Assembly (NCBI GenBank): GCA_948468275.1
Contig: CAOKHI010000001.1
Coordinates: 1,866 to 65,865, forward strand
DNA length: 64,000 nt
DNA from: an uncultured Clostridium sp.
Lineage (GTDB): Bacteria; Bacillota; Clostridia; TANB77; CAG-508
Reading direction: 5' to 3'
A program made the translations under genes and the position numbers. This document shows, one piece after another, positions 4,784 through 25,595 of the stretch (position 1 is its first letter; every line of letters starts with the position of its first letter). The notes under the pieces were generated by a model. It was not told the origin of the DNA, searched no databases, and saw nothing but the letters and a program-made list of their open reading frames with translations.

Positions 4784-6364
4784 ATGAAAAAAATTAACAA
4801 AATAGGAAAAAATGCCATAACACTAATAGCACTTGTAATAACGATAATAATTATATTAATTTTAGCAGGTGTAACTTTAACAATATTAATAGGAGAAAAT
4901 GGATTATTTGCAAAAACTATAAAAACAAAAGAAATGTATGAGCAAAAATCTGCAAAAGAAAGATTAGAATTAGTCTTAAAAGAGATGCAGATAGATAAAA
5001 GAGCGAATAATGAATATAATAAAGAAGAATATTTGACCAATAAGATAAAAGAAAATGGAATTGAAGTTAGTGGGAATTATGTTGTAGTAGATGGATATAA
5101 TTTTGAGATTGATAGAGATATATTAGAAATAGTATCAGGAGGAAGTAAAAACGAAGAAATAAGAACAAATGAAAGTATAATTGGAAAGATATCTACAATA
5201 AATACTACAGGATATTATAAAATAGAATTAACTGCAAAACCAGAAGAGCAAATTAAGTATAATGTGCATTTATTAAATTATGATGGGGATTTGATATTAG
5301 ATGGAGTAAAACAAGTAGAAGGTTCAACTCTTACAAATAATATATATGAATTTGGAGATAAAGATACAGATGTAGCAACTAAAACAGAAGATGCAAAAAA
5401 TATGGTAATTATAAAAGTAAATGGAAATTTAATAATAAATGAAAATATTACATTAACAGCATGTAAAAGTACTGATGGATATGGTGGACCAAAAGGAATA
5501 CTAATTTATTGTACAGGTTCTATAACTAATAAAGGAACAATTAGTATGACAGCAAGAGGAGCAAGAGCAAATGGAGAAGATGTATATTTATGGCAAAATT
5601 CAGATAAAAGCTATGAATATATACCAGCAGTAGGAGCAAATGGAGCAGAGCCAAAGAGTATAGCAGGTTTAACTGCTACTGATTCAATAACAACAAATGA
5701 GACTTTTTTTGGAAATAATGGAGAAAATGGTATTAAAAGACAATCTGGAGGTGGTGGTTCTGGTTCGGCTCAAGCATGGAGATCGACAAATATGGGAACT
5801 ACAACAGCACTAAAAGGAGGAAATGGAACATCATATTCAGGTGGAAGTGGTTCAGGAGGAATTAGAATTGATGTATCTGGAAATAGTTCTACATATAATG
5901 GATATGCAGCATCAGAAAATGGAGGAGCAGGAGGAGATGGTAATGCAAGACAAGGAAATCAATCTAGTGTATATGCAGGAGGAGGTTCAGGAAATCCAGG
6001 AGGACTAGGAAATTATAGTTCATCTGGCTGGACCATGAGAGCATATCCAAACTCAAATGGACAAAATGGAACAGGAGGATTACTAATAATTAATGCATTA
6101 AATGTAAATAATTTTGGAATAATAGAATCTAATGGAACAGATGCATTACCTAAGAGTGCACAAACATTAAAAGGATCTGGAGGAGGAGGATCTGGAGCAG
6201 GAAGTATAAATATATTTTATAGAAATGAATACAAACAAACAGGAAAAGTAGAAGCAATAGGGGGAATAGGAGGTTATTTAACTACAAAAGGAGGAAATGG
6301 AGGAAGTGGAGCTATAACAATAGGAAGTATTTTAACAGGAACATTTATAGAAAAGGGAAAATAA
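4784..6364 (+). CDS. Gly/Ser/Asn-rich surface protein (526 aa) with a conserved N-terminal signal-anchor shared with two paralogs; probable beta-helix/adhesin-like
   Basis: RBS agaggag before the ATG. N-terminus MKKINKIGKNAITLIALVITIIIILILAGVTLTILIGENGLFAKT. The C-terminal part is rich in GGSGSGG / GNGG repeats. Confidence 0.7.
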   Translation: MKKINKIGKNAITLIALVITIIIILILAGVTLTILIGENGLFAKTIKTKEMYEQKSAKERLELVLKEMQIDKRANNEYNKEEYLTNKIKENGIEVSGNYVVVDGYNFEIDRDILEIVSGGSKNEEIRTNESIIGKISTINTTGYYKIELTAKPEEQIKYNVHLLNYDGDLILDGVKQVEGSTLTNNIYEFGDKDTDVATKTEDAKNMVIIKVNGNLIINENITLTACKSTDGYGGPKGILIYCTGSITNKGTISMTARGARANGEDVYLWQNSDKSYEYIPAVGANGAEPKSIAGLTATDSITTNETFFGNNGENGIKRQSGGGGSGSAQAWRSTNMGTTTALKGGNGTSYSGGSGSGGIRIDVSGNSSTYNGYAASENGGAGGDGNARQGNQSSVYAGGGSGNPGGLGNYSSSGWTMRAYPNSNGQNGTGGLLIINALNVNNFGIIESNGTDALPKSAQTLKGSGGGGSGAGSINIFYRNEYKQTGKVEAIGGIGGYLTTKGGNGGSGAITIGSILTGTFIEKGK

Positions 6365-6365
6365 A

Positions 6366-6416
6366 AAATGTACTATAAATTATTTATCTTAAATAATTTA
6401 TAGTACATTTTTAGAT
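6366..6416. terminator. Bidirectional terminator between convergent genes (4784 gene and cdd)
   Basis: Perfect 21-bp inverted repeat AAAATGTACTATAAATTATTT ... AAATAATTTATAGTACATTTT. Confidence 0.65.
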
Positions 6417-6429
6417 TTATTTTAATAAC

Positions 6430-6825
6430 TTATATTGTAAAAGAATGTGGCAATAATTCATGGATTGTATAACTTTCTATTTCATCATTTTCACCAAAAC
6501 ATGTATAAATTTTAAAATCACCATCAACATATTGATTCATAAATTGTCTACAATAACCACAAGGTAAACATTTTTCCAAAACAGAAGCATCCTTTAGAGC
6601 ACCAACTACAACAATATAACTAAATTCACTTTCTCCCTCTGATAAAGCCTTCACAAAAGCAGTTCTTTCAGCACATATACTTTGAATACCATCATTTTCG
6701 ATATTACATCCAGAATAAAATTTTCCATTTTTTGTAACTAAACAAGAACCAACATAATAAAAACTAGCATGGGCGTTTTTTCTAGTATTTTTGGCAATTT
6801 CAATTGCTTTATATAAATCATCCAT
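6430..6825 (-). CDS. cdd: Cytidine deaminase
   Basis: 131 aa. Zinc-binding motifs CAERTA and PCGYCRQ. Confidence 0.85.
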   Translation of the reverse strand: MDDLYKAIEIAKNTRKNAHASFYYVGSCLVTKNGKFYSGCNIENDGIQSICAERTAFVKALSEGESEFSYIVVVGALKDASVLEKCLPCGYCRQFMNQYVDGDFKIYTCFGENDEIESYTIHELLPHSFTI

Positions 6826-8308: not shown

Positions 8309-10393
8309 GTGGCAAATAGAGAAATTTCGTTAGAAAAAACAAGAAATATAGGAATAATGGCCCATATAGATGCTGGTAAAACAACAACTACAGAGAGAAT
8401 ACTTTTCTATACAGGTAGAGTTCATAAAATTGGAGAAACACATGAAGGTGCTGCAACAATGGACTGGATGGCTCAAGAGCAAGAAAGAGGTATAACAATT
8501 ACTTCTGCTGCAACAACATGTCACTGGTTAGATAACAGAATAAATATAATAGACACTCCAGGTCACGTTGACTTTACAGTTGAAGTTGAAAGATCATTAA
8601 GAGTATTAGATGGTTCTGTAACTGTATTTTGTGCAAAAGGTGGTGTTCAACCACAATCTGAAACAGTTTGGAGACAAGCAGATAAATATCATGTTCCAAG
8701 AATGGCATATGTAAACAAAATGGATATTACAGGTGCTAATTTCTTAGGATGTGTTGAACAAATGAAAGAAAGATTAAATGCAAATGCAATTCCAATCCAA
8801 TTACCGATAGGAGCAGAAGATACATTCCAAGGAATTGTAGATTTAATCAAAATGAGAGCATTTGTTCATAAAGACGATTTAGGAAAAGAAATAGAAGAAC
8901 AAGATATTCCAACAGATATGGTTGCTGATTGTGAAAAATATAGAAGCCAAATGATAGAAGCAGTAGCAGAACAAAATGATGAGTTAATGATGAAATATTT
9001 AGAAGGAGAAGAACTAACAGAAGCTGAAATAAAAAAAGGATTACGTATAGGAACAATAAAGAACACAATAGTTCCAGTATGCTGTGGTTCATCTTATAAA
9101 AATAAAGGTGTTCAAGAACTATTAAATTCAATAGTAGACTATATGCCATCTCCACTAGATATACCACACATAAAAGGTCAAGATATGGATGGAAATGAAA
9201 CAGAAGCCATAACAGGAGATGACCAACCATTTGCAGCATTAGCATTTAAAATTGCTACAGACCCATTTGTTGGAAAACTTTGTTTCTTTAGAGTATATTC
9301 AGGAACATTAGAATCAGGTTCAACAGTATTAAACTCTACAAAAAACAAAAAAGAGAGAATAGGAAGAATATTACAAATGCATGCAAACCATAGAGAAGAC
9401 ATAGAAAAAGTATATTCAGGAGATATTGCAGCAGCAGTTGGATTAAAAGAAGTTACAACAGGAGATACATTATGCGATCCAGCACATCCAGTTATATTAG
9501 AATCTATGGAATTCCCAGAACCAGTTATAGATATAGCTATTGAGCCAAAAGACAAAGTAGCTAGTGAAAAAATGGGAATAGCACTTGCTAAACTTGCAGA
9601 AGAAGATCCAACATTTAAAACATATACAAACCATGAAACAGGTCAAACAGTTATAGCAGGAATGGGAGAATTACATCTAGATATTATAGTAGATAGATTA
9701 AAAAGAGAATTTAAAGTAGAAGCAAATGTAGGTAAACCACAAGTTGCATATAAAGAAACTATAAGAGAAAAAGTTAAAGTTGAAGGAAAATTCATACGTC
9801 AATCAGGTGGACGTGGACAATATGGTCATGTTTGGCTAGAAATGGAACCACTAGAGCCAGGAACAGGAATAGAATTTGAAAGCAAAATAGTAGGTGGAGT
9901 TGTTCCAAAAGAATATGTAAAACCAATTGAAGAAGGAATTAGAGAAGCAGCTGAAAGTGGAATTCTTGCAGGATATCCTGTTATAGACTTTAAAGCAACA
10001 TTAGTAGATGGTTCATACCACGAAGTTGATTCATCAGAAATGGCATTTAAAATAGCAGGTTCAATGGCATTCAAAGAAGGATGTAAAAAAGCAAAATCAG
10101 TAATACTAGAACCAATAATGAGAGTAGAAGTAACAGTTCCAGAAGAATACATGGGAGATGTTATAGGAGATATAAACTCAAGACGTGGAAGAATGGAAGG
10201 AATGGAAGCAAGAAGTGGAAACCAAATAATAAGAGGATTTATTCCATTATCAGAAATGTTTGGTTACGCAACAGACTTACGTTCTAAAACACAAGGAAGA
10301 GGAACATATGCAATGGAACCATCACATTATGAAGAAGTTCCAAAATCAGTATTAGAAGCAATAGTATCATCAAGAGCTAAAAAAGAAGAATAG
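8309..10393 (+). CDS. fusA: Elongation factor G
   Basis: GTG start. [19 protein letters not shown]-domain. 694 aa. Confidence 0.95.
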
Positions 10394-10519
10394 AAGTAAA
10401 ATAATAAAATTACCTAAAATGCTTGCATTTTTAATAATTTTATTATAAAATGCATATACTAACACAAATTAGTTATTAAATTTAAAAAATAAAATAAAAA
10501 AATAAGGAGGAATTCAAAA

Positions 10520-11722
10520 ATGGCTAAAGCTAAATTTGAAAGAACAAAACCACACGTTAACATTGGAACAATCGGTCACGTTGACCACGGAAAAACAACA
10601 ACAACAGCAGCTATTACAAAATACTTAGGATTATTAGGAAAAGCAGAATTCGCAGCTTATGACAAAATCGATGGAGCACCAGAAGAAAAAGCAAGAGGAA
10701 TCACAATTAATACAGCACACGTTGAATATGAAACAGACAACAGACACTATGCACACGTTGACTGTCCAGGACACGCAGACTATGTTAAAAACATGATTAC
10801 AGGTGCTGCACAAATGGACGGAGCAATATTAGTAGTATCAGCAGCAGATGGACCAATGCCTCAAACAAGAGAACATATACTACTTGCAAGACAAGTTGGT
10901 GTTAAATACATTGTTGTATACTTAAACAAATGTGATATGGTAGACGATCCAGAGTTATTAGAATTAGTTGAAATGGAAGTTAGAGATTTATTATCAAGCT
11001 ATGATTTCCCAGGAGATGATATTCCAATCATAAAAGGATCATCATTAAAAGTATTAGAATCATCATCAACAGATCCAAATGCAGCAGAATATGTGCCAAT
11101 GAAAGAATTAATGGAAGCAGTTGATAGCTATATACCAACACCAGAAAGACCAGTAGATCAACCATTCCTAATGCCAGTTGAAGACGTATTCACAATAACT
11201 GGACGTGGAACAGTTGCAACAGGTAGAGTAGAAAGAGGAATAGTAAAAGTTTCTGATGAAATTGAAATGGTAGGATTATCAGCAGAAAGAAGAAAAACAG
11301 TTGTTACAGGTGTTGAAATGTTCAGAAAATTACTAGATCAAGCAGAAGCAGGAGATAACATAGGAGTTTTATTAAGAGGTGTAGATAGAAAAGACATCGA
11401 AAGAGGTCAAGTTCTAGCAAAACCAGGAACAATAAACCCACATACAAAATTCAAATCAGAAGTTTATGTACTAACAAAAGAAGAAGGTGGAAGACACACA
11501 CCATTCTTCAACGGATACAGACCACAATTCTACTTCAGAACAACAGACGTTACAGGTGTTATTGAATTACCAGCAGGAACAGAAATGGTTATGCCAGGAG
11601 ATAACATTGCAATGACAATAGAACTTATTACACCAATAGCAATTGAAAAAGGATTAAGATTTGCTATACGTGAAGGTGGAAGAACAGTAGGTTCTGGAAT
11701 AGTTTCTGAAATATTAGCATAA
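10520..11722 (+). CDS. tuf: Elongation factor Tu
   Basis: [27 protein letters not shown]... 400 aa. Confidence 0.95.
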
Positions 11723-11739
11723 GATAAACAAGATATATA

Positions 11740-11775
11740 AATAGCAAGGATTCTCTTAATCCTTGCTATTTATTT
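11740..11775 (+). terminator. Rho-independent terminator after tuf
   Basis: AAATAGCAAGGATT ctctta AATCCTTGCTATTT followed by a T-rich tract. Confidence 0.65.
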
Positions 11776-11951
11776 TAATACTGCTAGTTTATACTAAAAA
11801 TAAAGATTTAGCAAAAAGTAATCTTTGTATGGAAAAACCAATATAGACTATTGAAAAAATGACGAAATTGCTCCTACATAATTACAATAATTTTAGCTAA
11901 AGTTAGTATTTGCTATGTAATAATAAAAAGAGTTTTAAAAAACTCTTTTTA

Positions 11952-12260
11952 CTAATCCCTATTCAATTCATTTTCATCTATTACAATATTTTTATTATTT
12001 TGTACTGCATCTTTTGCTTTTTTAACATCTACTTGAACATGTTGAATACCTTTTTGTTTATCTAAAATTATAGTTGCTTTACCTACAGTCTTAGACAATT
12101 CGTCTACAACACTTCCTTGACTTTTTTGAATTGTTTCAAGTTTCTCTACTTTTTTAGCCATGTTCTGATCTATTTCTACTCCTTTACTACTTGTAAGTTC
12201 TCTATAAAACATTGCTAAAGCCGAAAATATATTACTTTTACTTGCTTGTATATTACCCAT
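11952..12260 (-). CDS. Hypothetical small protein (102 aa), charged and coiled-coil-like
   Basis: ORF with RBS aggagga upstream. A bidirectional hairpin terminator at 11925-11950 lies downstream. No recognisable domain. Confidence 0.45.
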   Translation of the reverse strand: MGNIQASKSNIFSALAMFYRELTSSKGVEIDQNMAKKVEKLETIQKSQGSVVDELSKTVGKATIILDKQKGIQHVQVDVKKAKDAVQNNKNIVIDENELNRD

Positions 12261-12376
12261 ATAATTTTTCCTCCTATATTACTTAGGAAATTTCACCTCT
12301 TATTTTTTATTAACATATATTTATATTAACATAATTATCACAAGAAATCAAGCATTTTTAATATTTTCTTAAAAAT

Positions 12377-12505
12377 GTCAATAGGTAGTGTCAATAGGGA
12401 CGGGGCTTTTTGACACATAATTTTTTAAAATAATTATATATTTAGATATAACACACAAATATTAATTGAAAAAGTGTGTCAAAAAGCCCCGTCCCTATTG
12501 ACACT
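12377..12505. repeat. Perfect 32-bp inverted repeat (TAGTGTCAATAGGGACGGGGCTTTTTGACACA) separated by a 54-bp AT-rich spacer; also contains direct repeat TGTCAATAGG x2
   Basis: Arm 1 at about 12388-12419 and its exact reverse complement at about 12474-12505. Lies in the divergent region between 11952..12260 (-) and the 3D-domain gene (+). Confidence 0.7.
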
Positions 12506-12627
12506 ATGAGGAGTGGGAGGGCTACGGATGATGGAGATGAGATAAAAATTAAAAAAATAGTAATATTTTTTGTACAAGGAACATATAATGTAGTAATACC
12601 GGTAAATTTTAACGAAAAATTAAAATT

Positions 12628-12656
12628 TGACAAAGGGAAATATATAGTATATAATG
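12628..12656 (+). promoter_or_regulatory. Promoter TTGACA-N17-TATAAT for the 3D-domain gene
   Basis: Read directly from the sequence. Confidence 0.5.
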
Positions 12657-12690
12657 GCAATGTCACTTGAAGGAGGTAGATTATATATAT

Positions 12691-13692
12691 ATGTTAAAAA
12701 GTGAAAAAGCATCATTATCCGTAAGGAAAATTACATTTATTACAGTTTTATTACTACTATTTTTTAGTGTAGGTGTAATGGCAACAAGTGTACAAGTTAA
12801 TAATGTTAAAATTATTTTATCGAATAATTATGAAATGGATGTATTAACTACTAAGACTAAAGTTTCTGATATACTAAATGAAAATCATATTATAATATTA
12901 CCAGATGAAAATGTGGTTCCAAATCAAGACTCAGATATATCAGAAAATAAAACGATAACGATTACAAAAACATTAGAAAACGGAGAAAGTGTTATAAAAT
13001 TAGCAGAGGAAAACAATCAAGTAACAGTTGAGCAAATATTAGGAAATTATACACCAGTTGTAGAAAAAATTGTTACTGAACAGGTAGCAATACCTTTTGA
13101 AACGGTTACAAAAGATTCAGGAACTATTACAGGAGAAACTACAAATAAAGTTTTAAAAGAAGGAAAAGATGGATTAAAAGAAATAACATATAAAGCAAAA
13201 TACAAAAATGATGTAGAGATAGAAAGAATTGTACTATCAGAAATAGTAATTGCTGAACCAATAAATAAAGTAGTACAAGTAACTAAAACAGCTGTTACAT
13301 CAAGAGCCAATTCAACAAGAACGGTTTCAGATAATCCTGCAAAAAAGTCAACTAATACTTTAGCTAAAAGAGTAGAAGGAAAAACACCTGTAATAAAAAC
13401 ATTTAATACATCAGCATATTGTTCATGTTCAAAATGCTGTGGTAAAAGTACTGGTTTAACCTCATCAGGAGCAAAGGCAACATCATGGTATACATTAGCT
13501 GCTGGAAGTGGATATCCTATGGGAACAGTAATTTATATACCAAGTTTAAAAAATAAGCCAAATGGTGGTTGGTTTGTAGTACAAGATAGAGGTGGAGCAA
13601 TTTCTAATAACAAACTAGATGTATATTTGGGATCTCATACGCAGGCAATACAATTTGGAAGAAAAACTTTAGAAGCGTATGTGTATATGTAG
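12691..13692 (+). CDS. Secreted cell-wall protein with DUF348 repeats, G5 domain and C-terminal 3D domain (YabE / RpfB-like architecture)
   Basis: GGAGG RBS then ATG 12691. Signal peptide. Repeats VKIILSNNYEMDV... and TITKTLENGESVIKL... G5-like TGETTNKVLKEGKDGLKEITYKAKY. 3D motif DVYLGSHTQAIQFG. Confidence 0.7.
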   Translation: MLKSEKASLSVRKITFITVLLLLFFSVGVMATSVQVNNVKIILSNNYEMDVLTTKTKVSDILNENHIIILPDENVVPNQDSDISENKTITITKTLENGESVIKLAEENNQVTVEQILGNYTPVVEKIVTEQVAIPFETVTKDSGTITGETTNKVLKEGKDGLKEITYKAKYKNDVEIERIVLSEIVIAEPINKVVQVTKTAVTSRANSTRTVSDNPAKKSTNTLAKRVEGKTPVIKTFNTSAYCSCSKCCGKSTGLTSSGAKATSWYTLAAGSGYPMGTVIYIPSLKNKPNGGWFVVQDRGGAISNNKLDVYLGSHTQAIQFGRKTLEAYVYM

Positions 13693-13861
13693 TGATAAAT
13701 GAAGATATGGGAGATTGTAATGATTTTCCATATTTTTATATATAACATTATTTAAAATGGTTTAATTACAAAAAAAGATACAAAAATAATAAGATAAAAT
13801 TGTTTATGGAAATTAATATTATATTAAGAGCTAATATATAGTACTTAGAGCCAAAAAATGA

Positions 13862-13890
13862 TTGACTTAAAAAAACAAAAAATATATAAT
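13862..13890 (+). promoter_or_regulatory. Consensus sigma-A promoter TTGACT-N17-TATAAT for the interrupted surface-protein gene
   Basis: Exact hexamers with a 17-nt spacer. AAGGAG RBS and the ATG at 13934 follow. Confidence 0.6.
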
Positions 13891-13933
13891 TTGAATATGT
13901 TTTGAAAGTAAGAATAAACAAAGGAGAAGTATA

Positions 13934-14083
13934 ATGGTGAAAAAAATAGGAGTAAGAAATAATGATTATGTAAGTAAAGATAGTGCTATAACATTAATAG
14001 TATTAGTTATTACAATAATATTACATTATTACTATGGTATGAAATATAGTAATAGCAACGGTTTCCTTAAAGCAATAGTTTAA
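13934..14083 (+). pseudogene. 5' fragment of a surface-protein paralog (conserved N-terminal signal) truncated by insertion of the mobile element at about 14020
   Basis: MVKKIGVRNNDYVSKDSAITLIVLVITII then unrelated LHYYYGMKYSNSNGFLKAIV*. The downstream continuation (VLLILVGVTISLIEKNGVF...) resumes in frame at 23637. Confidence 0.7.
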
Positions 14084-14132
14084 AATATAGATACATATAA
14101 AAAGATTTTACAGAAATGTAAAGTCTTTTTTT

Positions 14133-14223
14133 ATATATATTTATATATGGGTGCAACAATCGGTACTTTTCATATTCAATATATACTTATATATATTTAT
14201 ATTAGGGTGCAATAATAGGTATT
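14133..14223. repeat. Two iteron-like direct repeats (ATATATTTATAT(AT/TA)GGGTGCAA(C/T)AAT(C/A)GGTA(C/T)T) upstream of the rep gene; candidate replication origin
   Basis: Repeat 1 at 14133-14167 and repeat 2 at 14191-14223. Located directly 5' of the Rep CDS. Confidence 0.5.
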
Positions 14224-14360
14224 CCTGCACCTTATTATTACCCATATCAGTATATCACAATACCCAATATGTGCAACCCTGTGTATTGCCATTATAGGTT
14301 ACCAAGTCCAAGTCTAATATTTCTATATCTATTTACCCAAGATAAGGGGGAAATAGAGAA

Positions 14361-15826: not shown

Positions 15827-15840
15827 GGGGGTATAGTTAA

Positions 15841-16377
15841 ATGAAAGAACTTGAAATAATAGAATTAAAAGAGATTCCAATCGAAGAAATTATATCATTT
15901 TCAAAGTTACAAACATCGCCATATATCACTATTTTAGACGATTTAAACTTTGGATTGTTTAATCAATTTGTAGTGTGGGCAGACGAATTGAAACTTGTAT
16001 ATTTCATAGTTAAAGGCACAAATAAGATTGCAGTCATTGGAAACAGAAAAGAGGCATTGAAAATAGCAAGATTACTACAAGTAAAAGCCCAAGTTATGTA
16101 CTATACATTATTAAAGCCACGAAAGATATTCGGCAAAGTTTATACACCAAAAAGGAATTCAAACTATGTAGTACAAGCAGTCAATGAAAAAGGAAAACTA
16201 ATTGACCCATTTATCAATACAGAAATAGAAACAGTAAAGTGCAGCACATTATCAAAATACATTTTTAGGAACTACAAATATTATATCAGTGTTAGAGGTA
16301 GTAAAAATAACAAGGTAGAGAATTTTCAGTTACTAAGAGATAAAAGACATAATTTTGTTTTAAGTGGAAAGATTTAA
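15841..16377 (+). CDS. Hypothetical protein (178 aa), element cargo
   Basis: RBS aagggggt before the ATG. Confidence 0.45.
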   Translation: MKELEIIELKEIPIEEIISFSKLQTSPYITILDDLNFGLFNQFVVWADELKLVYFIVKGTNKIAVIGNRKEALKIARLLQVKAQVMYYTLLKPRKIFGKVYTPKRNSNYVVQAVNEKGKLIDPFINTEIETVKCSTLSKYIFRNYKYYISVRGSKNNKVENFQLLRDKRHNFVLSGKI

Positions 16378-16647
16378 TGTATTTTGAAAATATCAAATAC
16401 AAATGCACAATCTCACATAACACGTTGCAACGAGGTTTGATTTTAAGACATTTTCAGTAACTAAGGTATAAAAGTATATGATTGAAAATATCAAACATAT
16501 TCACGAAAACCCTTGACAGATTTTAAAACTTATAACATAAAAATATTTTTTAAGAACTTTTTAAGAAGGAGTTGCAATCGAACAAACATTCTTATATACT
16601 TACCATAGTAAGCCTTACAAATATTTTTGATAAGGGGGTGAGTATAT

Positions 16648-17010
16648 ATGGAAACAGATACAGAAAAAGAGAAAGAAAGACAAAAAGAAATACTACAACA
16701 CTTCGACAATACATTTAAAACAAATACTATAAATCATATACAGTTAAATATGCCATTGTTGAAAGTGTTTTATGAATATTTTAGTGACGAGTTACACAAG
16801 TCTAGCCCAAGTTATGACGAATTGAGAAAAAAGTACATCGAGGTTTCCGACCTATTAGAGAATTCATTTACAGAGGGGCAACAAACATTATTTGAGAAAT
16901 TCTTTGAGATTGGTAGCAATATGTCAGTTGAAAGAAGTGAACAACTTTTCTATTTTGGTTACATACTAGCCAAAGAGTTAGAAAAAGAAAGCATAATTGA
17001 AAAGACATAA
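16648..17010 (+). CDS. Hypothetical protein (120 aa), element cargo
   Basis: RBS aagggggtg, then ATG. Followed by a terminator. Confidence 0.45.
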   Translation: METDTEKEKERQKEILQHFDNTFKTNTINHIQLNMPLLKVFYEYFSDELHKSSPSYDELRKKYIEVSDLLENSFTEGQQTLFEKFFEIGSNMSVERSEQLFYFGYILAKELEKESIIEKT

Positions 17011-17019
17011 AAATTAAGT

Positions 17020-17046
17020 AAGTAGAGGTTTCCCCACCTCTACTTT
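17020..17046 (+). terminator. Terminator hairpin AAGTAGAGGT ttcccc ACCTCTACTT
   Basis: Perfect 10-bp stem after the stop of 16648..17010. Confidence 0.5.
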
Positions 17047-17186
17047 AATTATAATCATATTTCTAGGTACGAGGTTAAGTTTCTTGGCAATTTAATATAC
17101 CACATCATATAAAGTTATATCTTGGGAATTAAATGTTTATTATAACAAAAAATAGGCATAATAAAAGAGTAAGTATAACACTTACC

Positions 17187-17414
17187 CTAGACCTCATATT
17201 TATAGTGATAAAAAGTAGCACCAATAAAAGACAATATAAACCATATTATGATTTCATAAGTAATTACATATTGTGTTGCAGTTAATGATTGATACAAAAT
17301 AACATTTTGAATTCCTAGTGCAGTTGTAATAAGATAAGCAATAGCAATGTTAATAAGTGAAAATACAAGACTAGCAAACAACTCTTTGATTTCATATTTA
17401 GACATAATACTCAC
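17187..17414 (-). CDS. Small two-TM membrane protein (75 aa), holin-like
   Basis: Two hydrophobic helices with a charged C-terminus. Divergent from the XRE regulator. Confidence 0.35.
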   Translation of the reverse strand: MSIMSKYEIKELFASLVFSLINIAIAYLITTALGIQNVILYQSLTATQYVITYEIIIWFILSFIGATFYHYKYEV

Positions 17415-17548
17415 CTCATTTCCTTAATGTATGAGAAATTATAACAAAATAAAACATACTTGTAAAGTACTACACAACAAGAGATTAACACAAAGGCACT
17501 ACATATTATACAATAATTTATGAATAAATAGGACAAGGGGTGTAGTAA

Positions 17549-17809
17549 ATGGCAAAGGCAAATAAGGAAATAAAAGAAATAATGCAAGTTGTAGATTATG
17601 GTGATATAGAATTAAAACTAGATAAATTGTTAAATGATAGAAATATATCGACTTATGAATTAAGCAACAAGGCACACATAAGATTCCAAACAATACAGAA
17701 TTTGAGGAAAAGACAAACAACAAGAATAGATTTTAATGTACTAGCACGAATTTGTTACAGTTTAGATTGCAAGGTGCAAGATGTAATCGAATATAAAGAG
17801 AAGAAATAG
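17549..17809 (+). CDS. XRE/Cro-family helix-turn-helix transcriptional regulator (86 aa)
   Basis: HTH ISTYELSNKAHIRFQTIQNLRKRQTT. RBS aaggggtg. Confidence 0.6.
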   Translation: MAKANKEIKEIMQVVDYGDIELKLDKLLNDRNISTYELSNKAHIRFQTIQNLRKRQTTRIDFNVLARICYSLDCKVQDVIEYKEKK

Positions 17810-17905
17810 TAAAGAAGAAAAGTCTTTACTATTTTATTTGTGTTGCCCATCTCTTTTAAAATATTATAATACTTTTAGTGTACTACTTGAAATATAATAA
17901 TTGTT

Positions 17906-18328
17906 ATGATAATATATCAATGTAGAATAATGTCGAATAATTGGGGGGTGGTAAATTTGGGTGTAGTTGACGACTTGGAAAAATTAAAACAGTTGAAAGA
18001 CACAGGAGCAATTACAGATACAGAATTTGAGATTGAAAAGTCAAAAATATTAAATGGCAGTATTAGCAATAATAACAATGCAGATAAGAAAGCAACAAAA
18101 GGAATGATTGGTTTCATATTAGGGTTAGTATCAATCATAGCGTGGTATATTCCTTTAATTGGTTACCCAGTTACAGTATGTGGAATCATATTTAGTAGTT
18201 TAGGTATGAATTCTAAAAATAAAGGTAAAGCAGTTGCAGGGTTAGTATTATCAATAATATTTTTGATTGTAACACTAATCAATAGTATATTAGGTGCAAT
18301 TCTAGTTAATATGTTTTACTATTTATAG
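17906..18328 (+). CDS. SHOCT-domain protein with C-terminal transmembrane segments
   Basis: LEKLKQLKDTGAITDTEFEIEKSKIL matches the SHOCT consensus, followed by 2-3 TM helices. Start is uncertain (a TTG/ATG candidate lies about 17930-17950). Confidence 0.45.
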   Translation: MIIYQCRIMSNNWGVVNLGVVDDLEKLKQLKDTGAITDTEFEIEKSKILNGSISNNNNADKKATKGMIGFILGLVSIIAWYIPLIGYPVTVCGIIFSSLGMNSKNKGKAVAGLVLSIIFLIVTLINSILGAILVNMFYYL

Positions 18329-18340
18329 TAAGGGGGAATT

Positions 18341-18733
18341 ATGGCAAGTAATTACAATGAATTAGGAAAACTTAAAGCCTTAAAAGATAATGGCACAATA
18401 ACGGATGCAGAATATGAAATACAAAAGTACAAAATCTTAAATACAACAGCAGAAACAAAAGGCAAAAAGAATAAGTCAAAAGTATTCTTTATTATTTCTA
18501 GCATTGGTACAGTAATAAGTATTGTATTAGGTGTAATTTCTTACTTGTGGCACGATTGTGATATGTATATTGATACATTACTTAATAATAAAAGTTTGAA
18601 TAGTGCAATATCTAACATTGTAGACGGCAGTTTCACAATACTAATTATAACCACTATTACAATGTTAATAGTAGGAATTGTATTTAAAATAAAGGAAAGA
18701 GGGGAAAGTAAAAATGTCAAAAAACATAATTAA
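18341..18733 (+). CDS. SHOCT-domain membrane protein, paralog of 17906 gene
   Basis: LGKLKALKDNGTITDAEYEIQKYKIL followed by TM helices. RBS aagggggaat. Confidence 0.5.
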   Translation: MASNYNELGKLKALKDNGTITDAEYEIQKYKILNTTAETKGKKNKSKVFFIISSIGTVISIVLGVISYLWHDCDMYIDTLLNNKSLNSAISNIVDGSFTILIITTITMLIVGIVFKIKERGESKNVKKHN

Positions 18734-19316
18734 AATTATAATAGTAATTGTAGTAGTAATAGCAGTAATTGTAGGTGGTATATTTGCATTTCAATTTATA
18801 TCTACAAATAGTAAAATAAAAGATACAGAGGAAAAATTAAATCAAATAAATGCAGAAGAATTAGAAAATAAACTAATTGAAAACTTGAAAAAGTCTAAAC
18901 TTTATGTAGGTGCAGTAAATGAAAGTGATAAAGAGTTGGTTTGGACAGAATTTAAGAATGTTAATGGTGTAGTAATTGCAAAAATTCAATCTACAAAAGG
19001 GGAATATGTAAATATACCTTGTTTTAAGATTGAAAGTGATAGTAATGGAAAATTTAAAAGCATAACCTTTGATAACTCACAAACTAATGGTATATTTGAT
19101 ATTAGTAAACAAGTGATAAATAGTGAATTTAAAAATGAATATAATATAGATACATTTATAGAAAACAATAGTTTATATAACAAACATTTTGTAATAGGTA
19201 GTGAACCACAAGAGATAGAAAGAAGTAGTCAAGTCTTTTTTGAAAGTATGACTAATCATATATTAGGTTATGTATCAATTTTAGAATGGTGGACTCCTAC
19301 TACATTTGGAATTTAA
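18714..19316 (+). CDS. Membrane-anchored hypothetical protein (200 aa)
   Basis: N-terminal TM IIKIIIVIVVVIAVIVGGIFAF. RBS aaggaaagagggg. Confidence 0.45.
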   Translation: MSKNIIKIIIVIVVVIAVIVGGIFAFQFISTNSKIKDTEEKLNQINAEELENKLIENLKKSKLYVGAVNESDKELVWTEFKNVNGVVIAKIQSTKGEYVNIPCFKIESDSNGKFKSITFDNSQTNGIFDISKQVINSEFKNEYNIDTFIENNSLYNKHFVIGSEPQEIERSSQVFFESMTNHILGYVSILEWWTPTTFGI

Positions 19317-19451
19317 AGAAGATCACACCCAATAATTTTAAGCAACAAATTATACTAGCCTACATATAAAAATGCCCCTCAATCAATTCTAGGGGCAAGA
19401 AAGTATAAAATAACAAAGGAAATGCAAACAACATCGCATTTCCTTTTAATA

Positions 19452-20006
19452 TTAAGCATTAGCATTTACAATTCTGTATAAACTTGTTTTTGAGATTCCA
19501 GTAGTTTTTATTATGTCATTTATAGAATAATCGTTTGAGTTATACATCTGTAAAATGGTTTCTTTTTTATCATTGAATTTATTAGGACGACCAAGTGTCT
19601 TGCCCCTTTTCTTAGCACTTTCTAAACCCTCTTTGGTACGTTGTGCAATCAAATCTCTTTCAAATTGAGATAAGCCAGCAAATATTGTAAATAGTAATTT
19701 TCCTTGTGGTGTAGTTGTATCTAACCAAGTTTCCTTTAATGATTTAATACTAGCACCCTTTTTCTCTATTATTTCTACTATATCAAATAAGTCCTTTGTA
19801 CTACGAGATAATCTTGTTAATTCTGTAATGATTACAACATCGCCCTCTCTTAAATTATCTAACATTCTATTTAATTCTATTCTTTCTCTTTTAGTGCCAG
19901 TTTCCTTTTCCTCGAAAATTCTTTCTACTCCATATTCATTTAGTATATCTGTTTGTCTGTCCAATTTTTGACCAGTAGTTGATACCCTTTTATAACCCAT
20001 TTTCAT
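19452..20006 (-). CDS. Small serine recombinase (resolvase/invertase family)
   Basis: RBS GGGAGG then ATG (MKMGYKRVSTTGQ..., catalytic Ser). C-terminal HTH. The ORF-track start at 20060 is unlikely. Confidence 0.8.
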   Translation of the reverse strand: MKMGYKRVSTTGQKLDRQTDILNEYGVERIFEEKETGTKRERIELNRMLDNLREGDVVIITELTRLSRSTKDLFDIVEIIEKKGASIKSLKETWLDTTTPQGKLLFTIFAGLSQFERDLIAQRTKEGLESAKKRGKTLGRPNKFNDKKETILQMYNSNDYSINDIIKTTGISKTSLYRIVNANA

Positions 20007-20206
20007 ATTATCTACCTCCCTGTGATTAGCCAGTGTACCAAAAATTAGTAACAAAGTCAAGCACTTTCGGTAATAATTTTTGAAACTTTTTTAAAATTTT
20101 ATAAAATATCATAAATTTGTTGTAATATCAGTATTTACAAAGAATAGTACCAAAATTACACATTAGCATATTTGAAAAGTACCATAAACAATCAATTTTG
20201 AAACTG

Positions 20207-20749
20207 TTACTTTTTAGGTATCATATTTCTAAAAAGTTTGTCTATTTCCCTTTGAACTTTAGCACTAGACATATAAACTACATCAGCCCTAGTTTCTTTA
20301 TCAAGAATGGTTTTATATTGGTTAGATACATTTTGTAATTCTTCAACAAATACATCTATTAAATTTGTATTACATATAATTTTATTCAATACATCTATTG
20401 CAGTTTCATTATTGATACTATCTAATTTCTTTTTAGAATCAGCACTTAACTTGTACTTGCCAACAATATTATCATTTCCAACATAAATTTCAGAAAAATC
20501 ACATCTATTAAGTAAACTATCAATAGAAATATCAAATAAATATGCAATGGCATATAGATTTACAGAGCCTATTCTTTGTTTATTATTGGGGTTTAAATAT
20601 CTTGTTATTTGTTTATCAGTAATTGATACATCACAAACTTCTTTTATTTTGTTAGATAATTCCTTTGGGGCATAGTCAAACATTTTCATAAGATTTTCTA
20701 AATTTTCAGCAAACTGTTTATTTGAGTACATTTTAAAGTCATTTTCCAT
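20207..20749 (-). CDS. CI-like repressor with an N-terminal XRE HTH domain (180 aa)
   Basis: HTH ...NKQFAENLENLMKMFDYAPKELSNKIKEVCDVSITDKQITRY... Divergently arranged to 20932 (a lysogeny-switch-like layout). Confidence 0.5.
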   Translation of the reverse strand: MENDFKMYSNKQFAENLENLMKMFDYAPKELSNKIKEVCDVSITDKQITRYLNPNNKQRIGSVNLYAIAYLFDISIDSLLNRCDFSEIYVGNDNIVGKYKLSADSKKKLDSINNETAIDVLNKIICNTNLIDVFVEELQNVSNQYKTILDKETRADVVYMSSAKVQREIDKLFRNMIPKK

Positions 20750-20931
20750 AAATTACAACCACCTTTTAAGACTTTTAATTCCACAATATTATCACATAAA
20801 GAATAATAAGTCAATAAATACAGACCTTTAATTCTAGGCAATAAAAATTAGTAAAACAATTTTATTAAGATAGTAATGAGGGGCAAGAAATATGCCTACT
20901 TAAAAATTAAAATATTAGGAGGTATGGAATT

Positions 20932-21279
20932 ATGAAAGCAGAAGAATTCCAAACAAAAGAAAAAGAACAGACAACAATCGCCGAGACATTTGATTTTGAA
21001 AACAAAAGAATAGGAGCATTTATTAAACACAGTTGCAGTGACGAGTTAGACATTAAGTTAAAATTTCTTGCAGATTATCAAGAAAAAAATAACATTGAAA
21101 AAATTGATTGGTTTTATACAGGGGAGAATGGAGATTACTGGGCATACTATAAAGCCATTACAGACATTTTTGAAGAAAACATAGATATTTTATTAGTAGT
21201 AGGAGACCTTGAAGAATTAACACCAGACTATGAAATACTAGAAAAAATTGAACAAAATGTTGAGTTAATAAGGGTGTAA
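20932..21279 (+). CDS. Hypothetical acidic protein (115 aa)
   Basis: RBS aggaggt then ATG. Confidence 0.45.
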   Translation: MKAEEFQTKEKEQTTIAETFDFENKRIGAFIKHSCSDELDIKLKFLADYQEKNNIEKIDWFYTGENGDYWAYYKAITDIFEENIDILLVVGDLEELTPDYEILEKIEQNVELIRV

Positions 21280-21955
21280 TTAAATGGTGGGGTAACCATT
21301 CCCCACTACCCCCAATTATGGAAAAGGAGCAAAAGGAAATGAAACAATTAAGAGTTAATAGAGATACAGACACAAAATCATTTTTCAATGAAATGTTTAT
21401 AAAAGACCTAAGCAAAAAAATGCAAAAAGTTTTTGTAGCAATGGAAAATAAACAATCAAAATAGAATTTACAAGCACATTGAAAAGTAAATATAAAAATT
21501 ACTAGATACAAAATAATGATACACTTACATAGCCATAGCACGAGCGAGATAAGACCGTCCCAAGCATTGGGTGTAAGTCTGTTGTAACAGATAGGTGCAA
21601 TTCCTGTGTACTACAATAAAGTAGTAGTTTAGTAATTAAAAAGAACCACACAAACCACACAAAACACACAATCAAACAAACCTAAAAAACAGATAAAAAA
21701 ATTACAGTAAATAACAATAGGTTGAGCAATCACTTATTGAGTAAGGTAGGTGTATTAGTATATGAAAACAGAATATAAAATAAAAGAGGAATTTTCACAA
21801 AATAAAGAAAATTCAAAGACATTAGAACAGATACTTGAAGAAATGTTTACAATATATTTAGTTGAAAAAGTTACCAAGGGGAGTTGAAAGCAACTCCCTT
21901 GTTGTTATATAATTCATATCAAGGAAACCTGTTGTTATTTGGAAAGAGGTTAATT

Positions 21956-23623
21956 ATGATAGTAATAACAAACCCAGAAAAATACAATGGGAAAACAGGG
22001 TTATATGAAAGACTTTCAAATGAAAAGTTAGAGGTTGTAAACATCAATGGTACAGTAACAAAAAAGGCAAATAAGCAAAGTGGTAGTATAGAAACACAAC
22101 AGTTGATACTTGAAAAATTTTGTGATAGCAATCATATTAGAGATTTTAAACACTACTACGACGATGGGTTTACTGGTGCAAACTTTGAAAGACCAAATTT
22201 TGAAAGACTTTTAGAGGACATTGAAAATGGAGAAATAAATTTAGTAATAGTAAAAGACTTGTCAAGGTTTGGAAGGTCGGACAAAGTACCAGATAGTGTA
22301 GAAGAATTTTTTGCCTTAAAAGGTGTAAGATTTATTGCAGTTGACGACAATATGGATACAGGCGAGGTTGCAGACATAAGTAAGATAGACGACGAGTTAC
22401 ATTTAAGAGCATTTTTCAATTCTTGGTATTTAAGAGATACATCAAAGAAGATAAGAAATGGAAAAAGAGCAAGAGCAGAACAAGGTAAGGTAATGGCAGT
22501 CTACCCTACTTATGGTTACCAAAAAGACCCAGCAGATAAAAACCACTACATTATAGACCCAGTAATAGCACCAACTGTTAAAAGAATGTTTGCAATTGCA
22601 ATAGAGGGAAAGACACCAACAGAAATAGGAACGATACTAACAGACGAGGGCATACCAGTACCAAGCGAAGTTGTAGGTAATAATCATACAAGAAAAGGTG
22701 CAGTCAAGAGAGGTTGGAACAGAAATACAGTTGTTAAAGTATTACAGAATGAAACTTATTTAGGTTGGGTAGTAAATGGTAATACAAGAAAAGTAAGTTA
22801 CAAAAATAAGAAAATAGTTAGTGTGCCAAAGGAAGACAGAATACTACGAAAAGGTATGCACGAGCCAATTATAGACGAGGCAACATTTAATCTAGTACAA
22901 AGTATGATTGAAAGCCGAAAGTCTACAAGGGTTAAGACCTATGATTGGTTATTAAAAGGTTTGGTATATTGTAAGGAATGTGGCAAGAAGTTAAGCATAG
23001 TAGCACAGAAACACCCACATAAAACAACATTCTATTTAAGGTGCAATACTTATGCCTGTAATACACATTTGGGGTTATGCACACCACATAGCAATAACTA
23101 TGAAAAGTTAGAAAATGCAGTTATAACACAAATCAAAAAGAGGTGTATGGAATTCTTACAAGAGGAAAGGTATCAGCAAATAGCCAACAAATCAAAAGAC
23201 AAGTTACTAAACAATAGATTTAGTTTAAAAAATCAAATACTATTACAAGAAAAGAAACTGGAAGATACAAACAACATTATTGATAAACTTTACAAGGAAA
23301 AATGTTTAGGTAAATTGCAAGAAGAAGATTTTACTAGAATGTATCTATTATATACAGAAGATAGAAAGGCAATAAAGGAATCAATAGAAAAACTTAAACA
23401 AGAGGAAGAAGAAAGTAAGACACCTAAAAAAGTTGATATAATGAAGATAGTTAAAGAGTTTGTAAGTTTCAAAGAGATAACACGAGAGATGTTAGTTTCA
23501 TTGGTAGATAGAATAGAAATAGCAGAAAATAAAGAAATAACTATTTACTATAATTTCAGTATTTTAAATGTTGCAGAGATACAAGACCAACAAGAAGAAA
23601 GTAATTTACAAGTAGTTGGTTAA
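21956..23623 (+). CDS. Large serine recombinase (integrase) of the element
   Basis: RBS GGAAAGAGG then ATG 21956. Catalytic motif GLYERLSN..., resolvase domain, then a recombinase/zinc-ribbon domain (CKECGKKL...C...C) and a coiled coil. The gene abuts attR. Confidence 0.8.
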   Translation: MIVITNPEKYNGKTGLYERLSNEKLEVVNINGTVTKKANKQSGSIETQQLILEKFCDSNHIRDFKHYYDDGFTGANFERPNFERLLEDIENGEINLVIVKDLSRFGRSDKVPDSVEEFFALKGVRFIAVDDNMDTGEVADISKIDDELHLRAFFNSWYLRDTSKKIRNGKRARAEQGKVMAVYPTYGYQKDPADKNHYIIDPVIAPTVKRMFAIAIEGKTPTEIGTILTDEGIPVPSEVVGNNHTRKGAVKRGWNRNTVVKVLQNETYLGWVVNGNTRKVSYKNKKIVSVPKEDRILRKGMHEPIIDEATFNLVQSMIESRKSTRVKTYDWLLKGLVYCKECGKKLSIVAQKHPHKTTFYLRCNTYACNTHLGLCTPHSNNYEKLENAVITQIKKRCMEFLQEERYQQIANKSKDKLLNNRFSLKNQILLQEKKLEDTNNIIDKLYKEKCLGKLQEEDFTRMYLLYTEDRKAIKESIEKLKQEEEESKTPKKVDIMKIVKEFVSFKEITREMLVSLVDRIEIAENKEITIYYNFSILNVAEIQDQQEESNLQVVG

Positions 23624-23636
23624 ACAATAGTAATAA

Positions 23637-24398
23637 AATAATATTATTACTATAATAGTACTATTAATATTAGTAGGTGTTACAATAAGTTTGATAGAAA
23701 AAAATGGAGTTTTTGAGTATGCAAAGGTGGCAACAGAAGAAACAAATAAACAAACAGCAACAGAAAAGATGAATTTAAAGATAACATCTACTCAGATGAA
23801 TATTTATGCAGAAGAACAAAGACTTCCAACACTCCAAGAATTTGCAGACGAACTATGTGAAGATAATGAAATAGAATATGTTGAAGTAAAAAGTAAAATA
23901 ATAGCAAGTGTAGCTAAAATAGATGTTGGAGAAGCACAGACAATATTTACAAAGTTAAAAGAGTATCCATATGAGTTTGAAATAAATTCTTCACTTCAGT
24001 TAGCAAGTATAGATGGTGTGAAAATTGCAACTAATAATACTGCTAAAGTAGGACAAAAGAAATATTCAACAGAGGAAACAATTGTGGGTAGTTGGATAGA
24101 TAATAAACCAATTTATCAAAAAACTTATGTTTTAACTGATTTATCAAAAAATGATGGACTGTTTATTACAATAGATGAAAATGCTAAGAATTATATAGAT
24201 AAATTTATACACAGTGAGTTTAGAATGACAAGAGCTATTGAGAATGTTCAATTGGCTTCATCATATGATTATGATGCTAATTCTCATTTTGCAGAGATAT
24301 GGTTTTCAAATGAAAAGGGATTATATATATTTGGAGCATTTGAATATACAGCATTAGAGTGTCATGTTACAGTACAATATACAAAGGTTACAGATTAA
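23637..24398 (+). pseudogene. 3' portion of the interrupted surface-protein paralog (continues from 13934 fragment)
   Basis: The frame is open from 23637 (NNIITIIVLLILVGVTISLIEKNGVFEYAK...). It is homologous to residues about 18-45 of the 4784 protein. The ORF track calls a TTG start at 23691. Confidence 0.65.
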
Positions 24399-24499
24399 AC
24401 TAAAAGTAAAAGAATATTTGACTTAGGAAACGAAGAAAAATAATATGAAGATATTTTGAAATAATGAAGAAAATAAAAGAAAACAAAGGAGTAGTGAAG

Positions 24500-25595
24500 A
24501 TGTTATATAAAGTTGAAATTAGAAAGACGAAAAATAATAGACGTTTAGGAAAACAAGAAGCAATAACTTTAATTGCATTAGTAATTACAATAATACTACT
24601 ACTTATATTATCAGGAGTAGTAATAAATTTAAGTATTCGGTCAAAATGGGCTTTTAGCTAGAGGAGAAAATGTAACTAATATGTGGAAAGAAGCAAGTAT
24701 AGATGAGCAGAAAAAATTTAATGAGCTATATGAAGAATTAGAAAATATGGAAATAGAGATACCACAATTACCTTATGAAGGAGTAGGATACAAATTTATT
24801 TATGATGGTACTTTAGGGGAAAGTGGTGTAGATGGAAAAAACATGTGTAATGATATTACTGGAGGATGGTCTACAAAAAGGACGAACTATGCTTTAAAAG
24901 GTGGAACATTTGATGGAAAAAAATTTGAGTGGTATCATGGTTGGCTTTTTACAAATGATAAAATAAATTTAACAAATTATAAAAAAATATATGTGTCATC
25001 GAATATAGTAGAAAATGGATCTGTTATATATAATTATGTTTATGGTTGGAGTAAACAATATGCTAATAATGGAGAAGTTTATCCATATCCAAATAATAAT
25101 CCATTAATAAATGTAGAAGCAGGTGGAAAAAAAGATTTTGCATATTATGAAAATAAAAGAACTATGGGATTAATTGATATACCAGAAAAATGGGAAGGAT
25201 ATATTGGTATATATTCATGTCATTCAGCAGGCAATACTTATTATTATGATTATCAAACATCTTATGTAAGAAATTTTTGCAATTCAGGCAGATATATAGA
25301 TGTATATAGTATAGTAGCTTTAAAAGAAGATGATTGGAAAGCATGGATAAAATTAGCTAAAATAGATAGTGATCAATTCACATCACTAAGTGAAATATTA
25401 GAAAATGAAGAAGTATTACAAAAGGCTTTTAGTAAGAGGAAAGCAAATGAGTATTTATTAAAGTGCTCAGGAACATTAATGGTTGAAATATTAAAAAATG
25501 ATAAATCATATAAATTAATTCCAAAAGAATTAATTGCAGAAATGCAAAACAATGAAAATTGGAATCATTTTATGAAAGTATGTGAGCTAAAATAG
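24500..25595 (+). pseudogene. Third paralog of the surface-protein family, interrupted by a +1 frameshift at about 24638
   Basis: ORF 24464..24661 carries the conserved N-terminus EAITLIALVITIILLLILSGVVINLSI. Frame +1 continues with GQNGLLARGENVTNMWKEAS... (compare GENGLFAKT in the 4784 protein). An extra C sits in attCggt. Confidence 0.65.

Follow-up and report, generated by a model that had tools for sequence, protein, structure and literature searches.

What is the protein segment shared by three otherwise dissimilar genes of an uncultured Clostridium sp., and how does its coding sequence come to hold the insertion site of a mobile element? We analyzed these genes in a stretch of 64,000 nt (assembly GCA_948468275.1, contig CAOKHI010000001.1, positions 1,866-65,865, forward strand), hereafter the window, which has a low GC content (~27%). 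A six-frame motif scan identified exactly three copies of the segment, referred to as the block, starting at 4814, 13985, and 24560, all on the + strand. The genes that carry them, designated P1, P2, and P3, are located among housekeeping genes (aspS, rpsL, rpsG, fusA, tuf, and rpoB), and P2 is split by the element. The block is, with high probability, a pilin class III signal peptide joined to the α1 helix, whose two parts are referred to as α1N and α1C. The positions of the three genes are as follows.

4784-6364, + strand: P1, an intact open reading frame (ORF) of 526 aa, modular pilin-like gene
13934-14020, + strand: P2 5' fragment, leader and first 11 mature residues (..SKDSA/ITLIVLVITII), cut here by the element
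23658-24398, + strand: P2 3' fragment, the rest of α1N (VLLILVGVTISLIEKNGVF), α1C, a conserved ~90-aa module (..YPYEFEINSSLQLASIDG), and a variable beta-sandwich
24500-25595, + strand: P3, 364 aa once one C near 24638 is removed; alternative in-frame start at 24464

Mature residue +1 is the Ile after the leader, and -1 is the last leader residue. The leaders end in ..GKNA/I (P1), ..SKDSA/I (P2), and ..GKQEA/I (P3), and mature position 5 is Ala in P1 and P3 and Val in P2. P1 consists of the leader MKKINKIGKNA, the stretch ITLIALVITIIIILILAGV..GENG, an α1C helix, a small beta-sheet, and a large Gly-rich beta domain. In P2, the family pattern is lost after ..AITLIVLVITII in the 5' part and resumes at 23658, not at 23637 as given in the first-pass annotation, which a model had made from the letters and ORFs of this DNA. 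Rejoining the two fragments (13934-14020 and 23658-24398) yields an open 275-aa protein bearing the full motif. Among the three proteins, BLASTP similarity was confined to the first ~90-134 residues, and the C-terminal domain of P3 is unrelated to those of P1 and P2. The earlier description of a common N-terminal block followed by unrelated C-termini is thus upheld.

The core of the block, I-T-L-I-A-L-V-I-T-I-I-V-L-L-I-L-A-G-V, follows a short basic leader. We built a logo from 376 members, which were retrieved by similarity, so that it is somewhat biased toward the consensus. The leader has a median length of 10 aa and a net charge of +3, and its residue at -2 is basic (Lys or Arg). At -1, which the search pattern had left free, Gly is found in 69% and Ala in 30%. 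Thr2 (100%) and Thr9 (99%) are nearly or fully invariant, position 5 is Ala (81%) or Ser (17%) and never Glu, and the hydrophobic run from +1 to +25 is followed by G26-x-N28-G29. The conservation is position-specific at T2, T9, G18, G26, N28, and G29.

The first-pass annotation had noted a resemblance to the hydrophobic helix of prepilins, and the searches bore this out. Against 177,635 PDB sequences, the block profile gave four matches at E<=10, all of which are type IV pilins (MshA, PilA, and two geopilins), aligned in register (kaITLIALVITI to qGFTLIELVVVI). The full P1 profile matched only a geopilin and MshA, via the N-terminus. With the Pfam model PF07963 (N_methyl), 15/16 isolated blocks matched in register at E<=10, the best at 2.3e-5. 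Most family members score below its gathering threshold of 21.2 bits; three relatives with Gly at -1 reach or exceed it, namely P0121 (21.7 bits), P0220 (21.8 bits), and a pilin encoded in a pilus operon of locus L046 (21.3 bits). (P0xxx denotes retrieved database proteins, and L0xx metagenome contigs or related genome loci.) In P1, N_methyl aligned residues 10-31 in register below the threshold, the block scoring 8.0 bits.

The same searches bear on whether the block could be a generic transmembrane (TM) anchor or Sec signal peptide, similar among the genes through composition and through DNA shared by recent gene conversion between paralogs. The sequence is hydrophobic, AT-rich, and of low complexity, and it gave weak matches to FliL and other TM segments. 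However, none of six composition-preserving shuffles and none of four natural non-family TM anchors matched N_methyl, so the similarity depends on residue order rather than composition. The position-specific conservation holds across clusters that number in the tens of thousands and come from a wide range of hosts. The block also contains no AxA cleavage site and no lipobox Cys (L-A-G-V without Cys at +1), and its ~25-residue hydrophobic run is too long for a typical Sec h-region. We regard the generic-anchor explanation, which the earlier annotation had named as a possible objection, as refuted by these controls and of negligible probability. FliL itself was likewise rejected as an identity: in the weak matches to PRK08455, no whole protein scored above 22.6 bits (cut-off 187), and the similarity is one between TM segments.

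A class III signal peptide has been defined by a leader ending in Gly or Ala, 20-25 hydrophobic residues, and a Glu5 that is present "often but not always" (PMC10191384). Because its leader end, hydrophobic length, and optional Glu5 fit this published definition, we identify the block as such a signal. A pilin model with a canonical cleavage motif had been proposed as evidence against a distinct signal: the model does match and -1 is canonical, whereas +1 and +5 are not. Like type IV pilins (IPR012902 / PF07963; MshA, PilA, and Geobacter PilA-N), the family has a leader ending in Gly/Ala with Lys/Arg at -2, an invariant Thr2, a T-L-I core in register, and an α1N of ~25 residues followed by α1C. 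In contrast to canonical pilins, the family has Ile in place of Phe or Met at +1, and Ala, Ser, or Val but no Glu at +5. Pro22 is absent and a conserved GxNG kink is found at 26-29 instead; α1N is almost invariant family-wide, and most members fall below the Pfam gathering threshold. The absence of Glu5, the Gly/Ala site, and the purely hydrophobic helix are shared with archaeal class III signals (pilins, archaellins, and bindosome sugar-binding proteins), as are the use of the signal on many unrelated extracellular domains and a stand-alone peptidase without a methylase domain. Unlike the archaeal systems, this one occurs in bacterial hosts with machinery resembling that of type IVa pili (T4aP; PilB with MshEN, PilT, and PilM), and the scans of the proteins and isolated blocks matched no archaeal pilin model. 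Full-text literature searches with peptide strings of the block matched no paper, and a tblastn search of 50,697 phage records with the block found nothing.

The conserved segment is longer than the ~40 aa first assigned to it. In a profile-profile comparison of P1-like and P2-like proteins, homology continued ~40 residues past GxNG (probability 96.5%) before the sequences diverged, which gives a module of ~80 aa. AlphaFold2 (AF2) models show helices that match α1N and α1C. The P1 model (pLDDT 88.6) has helices at residues 5-36, 41-74, and 82-90, thus including two long ones, followed by a four-stranded sheet (94-122) and a beta-rich effector domain. For the intact form of P2, protein P0266, the model (pLDDT 73) has a helix at 17-44 and a layout similar to that of P1. 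The database protein P0386 is identical to P1 (ENA). The Gly-rich domain of P1 showed only low TM-score similarity in BFVD to viral glycine-rich, collagen-like, or Gp38-like proteins, which we treat as a lead only; the earlier "beta-helix" label is unconfirmed. A few homologues of this domain bear ordinary TM anchors in place of the block, which shows that the module is extracytoplasmic.

The block is not confined to a family of three, as had been proposed. An exhaustive search with its profile, a check that the first-pass annotation had recommended, found 31,387 representatives of 50%-identity clusters at E<=1e-3, with 17,629 at E<=1e-10. With just ~18-20 bits against this profile, canonical pilins fall far short of being included in the count. 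Lengths range from ~56 to >700 aa among the best profile matches, and P1 relatives reach ~850 aa. The C-terminal domains of relatives include GLUG, Laminin_G_3/ConA-like lectin, Big_2, F5/8 type C, and phage Collar domains, and many show no domain match. A survey of one genome per species gave at least 395 confirmed family loci, 80 of which were retrieved for context, several often from one metagenome-assembled genome (MAG). All 80 lie in MAGs labelled Clostridia, Clostridium, Clostridiales, Lachnospiraceae, or similar, from the gut of rabbit, chicken, human (Hadza), sheep, and mouse. Their flanks (1.17 Mb) contain 35 additional copies, and in this partial sample at least five paralogs occur in one MAG. 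No source names were returned for ten members. A very large protein set that has no domain match or informative name in the retrieved records, and that standard pilin models mostly miss, thereby gains a function class.

These architectures recall modular pilins, in which a pilin module is joined to a module not specific to pilus biology, as in PilB and PilC of Streptococcus sanguinis; ~1,200 such proteins were counted via InterPro (PMC8179133). The partner domains are of the same kinds, for example the ConA-like lectin PF13385. Unlike the S. sanguinis proteins, the present family comprises 31,387 clusters, is scattered in many copies per genome, lacks Glu5 throughout, and consists of candidate rather than established pilus components. 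We favor a modular-pilin reading of the window genes, with a shared N-terminal pilin module and unrelated C-terminal modules. The known kind is the type IV or modular pilin; Ile1, the absence of Glu5, the invariant α1N, the scale of the family, and its documented role as a multi-copy integration target are new.

Separately, many database entries appear as family genes broken just past GxNG (P0454, P0464, P0461, and many matches of 60-120 aa, such as P0033, P0036, and P0116). Some are N-terminal stubs with basic out-of-frame tails and others are C-terminal parts read from an internal Met, which could reflect assembly errors, frequent frameshifts, or phase variation.

We detected all or part of a pilus operon in 8/80 loci (L026, L030, L040, L041, L046, L059, L069, and L082) by clustering 541 neighboring ORFs and by ORF maps, Pfam, and tblastn. 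As in known type IV pilus systems, the family member is encoded within a pilM/N/O-pilin-pilD-pilB-pilT-pilC operon. The genes encode PilM, PilN/O-like proteins, a TM protein of 141-163 aa, the family member, a PilD-like protein (PF06750, 101-106 bits), one to three minor pilin-like proteins (GFTGID.., GITLISL.., GVTGID..), PilB (PF00437, 335 bits, plus MshEN), PilT, and PilC (PF00482); pilB and pilT were found in six loci. An early strict Walker-A screen for GspE/PilB ATPases in the flanks had come back empty, a false negative in view of these later searches. The operon family members are small (75-167 aa), with the same α1N as the window genes. Three of them, reminiscent of Geobacter PilA-N, are stick-only at 75-80 aa, comprising the leader and a single long helix (L040 9989-10231, L041 ~9992, and L082 ~9992). 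A pilin pattern with Glu5 (GFTLIE-type) was found in none of the 80 loci. Because the operon members carry the same α1N and no GFTLIE-type pilin was found, the sequences identify the block as the pilin signal and core helix of the type IV pilus of this clade. The variant, with Ile1, no Glu5, and an almost invariant α1N, is confined to a clade of Clostridia from the gut that are uncultured and low in GC. Among other short members, P0009 (L001 10001-10192) is a conserved stand-alone protein of 63 aa present on 87 contigs and adjoins a GT87/MptA-like membrane glycosyltransferase; the contexts of P0009 and P0086 contained no pilus genes.

The operon linkage also bears on the proposal, made in the first-pass annotation, of a distinct signal for sorting or anchoring, prepilin-like by convergence and served by other machinery. 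Such a signal would account for the missing Phe1 and Glu5, for the scores of the window proteins below the Pfam and NCBIfam cut-offs, and for the lack of pilus genes in the window and beside most family genes. It does not sit well with an in-register alignment to solved pilins and to pilins only, a -1 position that is strictly Gly/Ala, an invariant Thr2, relatives that pass the N_methyl gathering score, and a family pilin embedded in pilus operons of eight MAGs; moreover, clustering of the 541 ORFs revealed no recurrent unknown neighbor gene. The class III definition, the pilin register, and the operon linkage together disfavor a distinct signal, which we consider very improbable.

The related genomes encode A24 peptidases (PF01478), in two cases (L029 and L066) from a gene that comes immediately after a family gene. 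The relevant genes are listed below.

PilD-like genes of the pilus operons: L046 10477-11325, L040 10375-11169, L026 3543-4322, L041 10372-11100, L082 10279-11094, L030 1338-2162
Stand-alone A24 peptidase genes: L066 6176-6922, L019 19146-19898, L029 4158-4910; 248-250 aa, PF01478 only

The stand-alone proteins score 65 bits to PF01478, have no Cys pairs, and are encoded in a conserved gene neighborhood, HAD-A24-PepP-EF-P. In this clade, PilD seems to be divided between a methylase/zinc-finger protein encoded in the operon and a peptidase-only gene elsewhere.

These findings suggest a mechanism in which the protein is laid out as a basic leader, a hydrophobic α1N starting with Ile1-Thr2, the GxNG kink, and an amphipathic α1C of ~40 residues. 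The leader would keep the N-terminus in the cytoplasm while the hydrophobic stretch enters the membrane via Sec, and the A24 prepilin peptidase would cut after Gly/Ala. The freed α1N would then be polymerized into the pilus core by PilB/PilC/PilM, with PilT retracting the pilus. The small operon members (75-167 aa) would probably serve as the major subunit. The window genes would each combine the one pilin stick with a different effector or adhesin module (the Gly-rich beta domain, the beta-sandwich, or the third domain), which may be displayed on the pilus or at its tip. The almost invariant α1N would follow from the need for every subunit to pack against the same core. Its coding sequence, present in many copies per genome, has been exploited as attB, at the I-T-I codons, by large-serine-recombinase elements, one of which has split P2. 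Taken as a whole, this account (Glu5-less modular type IV pilins that double as an element landing site) is in our judgment the probable one.

Several observations weigh against this account. Full-length P1-P3 gave no meaningful Pfam or NCBIfam match, the thresholds not being reached, and Foldseek searches of the PDB with the P1 and P0266 models found nothing significant, pilins included. The window holds no pilus machinery gene or peptidase gene, and the operon evidence comes from related genomes. Neither the three window genes nor 72/80 sampled loci are close to pilus genes. In the operons, more than one gene could encode the major pilin, and the pilin-like neighbors carry Asp5; the PilD-like proteins have PF06750 only, with no PF01478 even at E<=10 and no GxGD motif. 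Furthermore, the peptidase-only gene and the pilus operon never occurred in the same MAG in our sample. Finally, Glu5 is absent across the family, which is compatible with processing without polymerization.

This last point leads to a competing scheme, in which the class III signal is cut by the A24 peptidase and most large members then stay membrane-anchored or form a short pseudopilus, with only the small operon pilin building a filament, much as archaeal sugar-binding proteins carry class III signals. In known systems the lack of Glu5 marks tip subunits (PMC10191384). The many paralogs per genome, the bulky C-terminal modules (up to 700 aa or more), and the separation of most family genes from pilus genes are consistent with such a fate, and the ordinary TM anchors on some homologues of the P1 Gly-rich domain suggest that plain anchoring is enough for that module. 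However, a plain anchor leaves the near-invariance of 25 membrane residues and α1C over 31,387 clusters unexplained; this conservation is best explained by packing in a common filament core. The operon pilin has an identical α1N, and incorporation into pili is known for modular pilins that bear a lectin or vWA module (PMC8179133). We therefore consider processing without polymerization unlikely, if a serious contender, and lean, with some reserve, toward processing of the window proteins and their presentation on pili as what really happens. A more far-reaching version of the pilus account, combining a retractile T4aP-type pilus whose whole repertoire lacks Glu5, including a sometimes stick-only major subunit, with dozens of interchangeable modular pilins per genome, a split PilD, and elements that reversibly switch pilin genes off, is put forward tentatively and, as a whole, is rather doubtful.

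Glu5 has been described as "absolutely conserved in bacterial T4P" (type IV pili) (PMC10710030), and a Glu5-less pilus, if real, would contradict this view. Should the operon pilin be the major subunit, these bacteria would provide a natural test case for the roles of Glu5 and N-methyl-Phe1 in assembly. The size of the family suggests that abundant uncultured gut Clostridia invest heavily in pilus-displayed adhesin or lectin modules.

The second part of our question concerns the element in P2. We identified an uninterrupted P2 allele, P0266 (275 aa, 99% identical over 100% of the query), on metagenome contig L086. This contig is syntenic with the window (a G5/3D-domain gene, P2, and the start of P3) and aligns to 11640-13764, 13795-14028, and 23644-24558 at 98-99.8% identity, with nothing between. 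The intact allele demonstrates the insertion and defines attB. The features of the element are as follows.

14021-23657, + strand: mobile element, 9,638 bp by alignment offset (the span counts one repeat copy)
14007-14020, + strand: attL repeat, TTATTACAATAATA; 12-bp part at 14009-14020, ATTACAATAATA
23644-23657, + strand: attR repeat, TTATTACTATAATA, identical to the empty-site attB; 12-bp part at 23646-23657, ATTACTATAATA
14361-15206, + strand: rolling-circle Rep (PF23343 / phrog_3419)
17549-17809, in the element: helix-turn-helix (HTH) repressor-like gene (Pfam/PHROGs)
19452-20060, - strand: small resolvase/invertase with an HTH_7 domain
21884-23623, + strand: large serine recombinase (PF00239 Resolvase, PF07508 Recombinase, PF13408 Zn_ribbon_recom, PF14287 DUF4368)

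The flanking repeats, TTATTAC[A/T]ATAATA, are located in the V-I-T-I-I codons, as the first-pass annotation had placed its 12-bp att core; they are not the identical copies it implied, since the 12-bp parts differ and the extended repeats agree at 13/14 positions. The empty site on L086 reads GTTATTACTATAATAGTAC, and the junctions read GTTATTACAATAATA/TTACAT (attL) and ATATTATTACTATAATA/GTAC (attR), from which, with the element ends, attP was reconstructed as AAATAATATTATTACAATAATATTACATTATT. The crossover is at or left of the variable base of the repeat. The recombinase gene occupies the right end of the element, its stop codon lying 20 nt before the attR repeat (23644). Pfam and PHROGs recognized no virion or conjugation genes in the element, and IMG/VR contained no close relatives of the recombinase. 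The element also encodes two small membrane proteins (17906-18733, + strand), whose N-terminal ~30 residues match the same PHROGs (phrog_2700 and phrog_888).

Recombinase relatives with 51-76% identity were found in 32 metagenome contigs. In 12/14 of the closest relatives with downstream sequence, and in the window, the 3' remainder of a family block begins 26-70 nt past the recombinase stop, and the tails read T-I-[IV]-V-L-L-I-L-A-G-V..xNG.. with three types of element end. Eight downstream proteins of >120 aa showed no mutual BLASTP similarity beyond the block, indicating that at least eight of the insertions are in different family genes. Two further heads among the 80 loci (L032 and L008) break off at the same codon, and the left end of the element that follows is akin to that of the window element. 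The suggestion that paralogs could serve as targets, and the advice to look for insertions in other genomes, were thus borne out: elements with related recombinases occupy these codons in many different family genes. A literature search for serine recombinases that target pilins returned nothing relevant.

Two observations stand apart from this pattern. L008 was rejected as a full element, being a decayed remnant beside an intact paralog; the truncated head and remnant (11092-11800, - strand) lie tail-to-tail with the paralog (9941-11092, + strand), whose leader is nearly identical, an arrangement that an old insertion or an inversion could have left behind. L091 (~4609-4720) and L100 (~4637-4750) have the same element ends followed by non-family sequence after a ..ATTACAAT or ..GCACAA junction, which could represent alternative targets, attP junctions, or rearrangements.

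Within the window, the 14-mer repeat occurs six times with <=1 mismatch, against 1.1 expected. The first-pass annotation had pointed to a copy of the 12-mer in a paralog, and it is indeed present in P3 at 24584-24595, within the following site.

24582-24595, + strand: candidate secondary attB in P3, TAATTACAATAATA, in the I-T-I-I codons

Since recombinase relatives sit in different paralogs, it is plausible that this site could serve as a secondary attB for the element.

The element resembles skin in sigK (Bacillus subtilis and Clostridioides difficile), the Listeria A118-like prophages in comK, and TnpX/TndX in the domain composition of its recombinase (Resolvase, Recombinase, and Zn ribbon, with or without DUF4368). 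It also shares with these gene-splitting elements a recombinase at one end, insertion in a coding sequence, short identity at the crossover, and an intact allele elsewhere. Unlike them, its target is a motif common to a multi-copy family, so that one element type is found in many genes, and the window element is small (9.6 kb), with a rolling-circle Rep and no recognizable virion or conjugation genes. This recombinase family provides a clear example of a mobile element hitting a conserved coding motif of a multigene family, and it bears on phase-variable surface display and on serine integrases with many natural landing sites.

P3, the remaining window gene, had been described as frameshifted. 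As read, it does stop after 53 codons, and deleting one base near 24638 gives back an ORF of 364 aa that reads ..GVVINLSIGQNGLL.. The only lesion in P3 is a surplus C in front of GG (ATT-C-GGT) at around 24630-24645. A surplus C in the same setting (AGA-C-GGA, ~32317, within 32300-32420) breaks the essential gene rpoC into two ORFs, 30180-32402 and 32323-33759. The shared lesion points to a recurrent error of assembly or sequencing and not to pseudogenes, so the P3 frameshift is probably an artefact, the simplest explanation, and the gene is probably intact in reality.

Elsewhere in the window, a complete type II Wadjet anti-plasmid defence system (JetA2-JetB2-JetC2-JetD2; PADLOC E-values 1e-182, 2e-128, 0, and 1e-122, respectively) is located at 34493-42699, in a stretch of lower GC content (22-25%). 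An ORF of 119 aa at 46070-46429, upstream of mraZ-rsmH, may encode a MazF/PemK-type toxin, which its product resembles.

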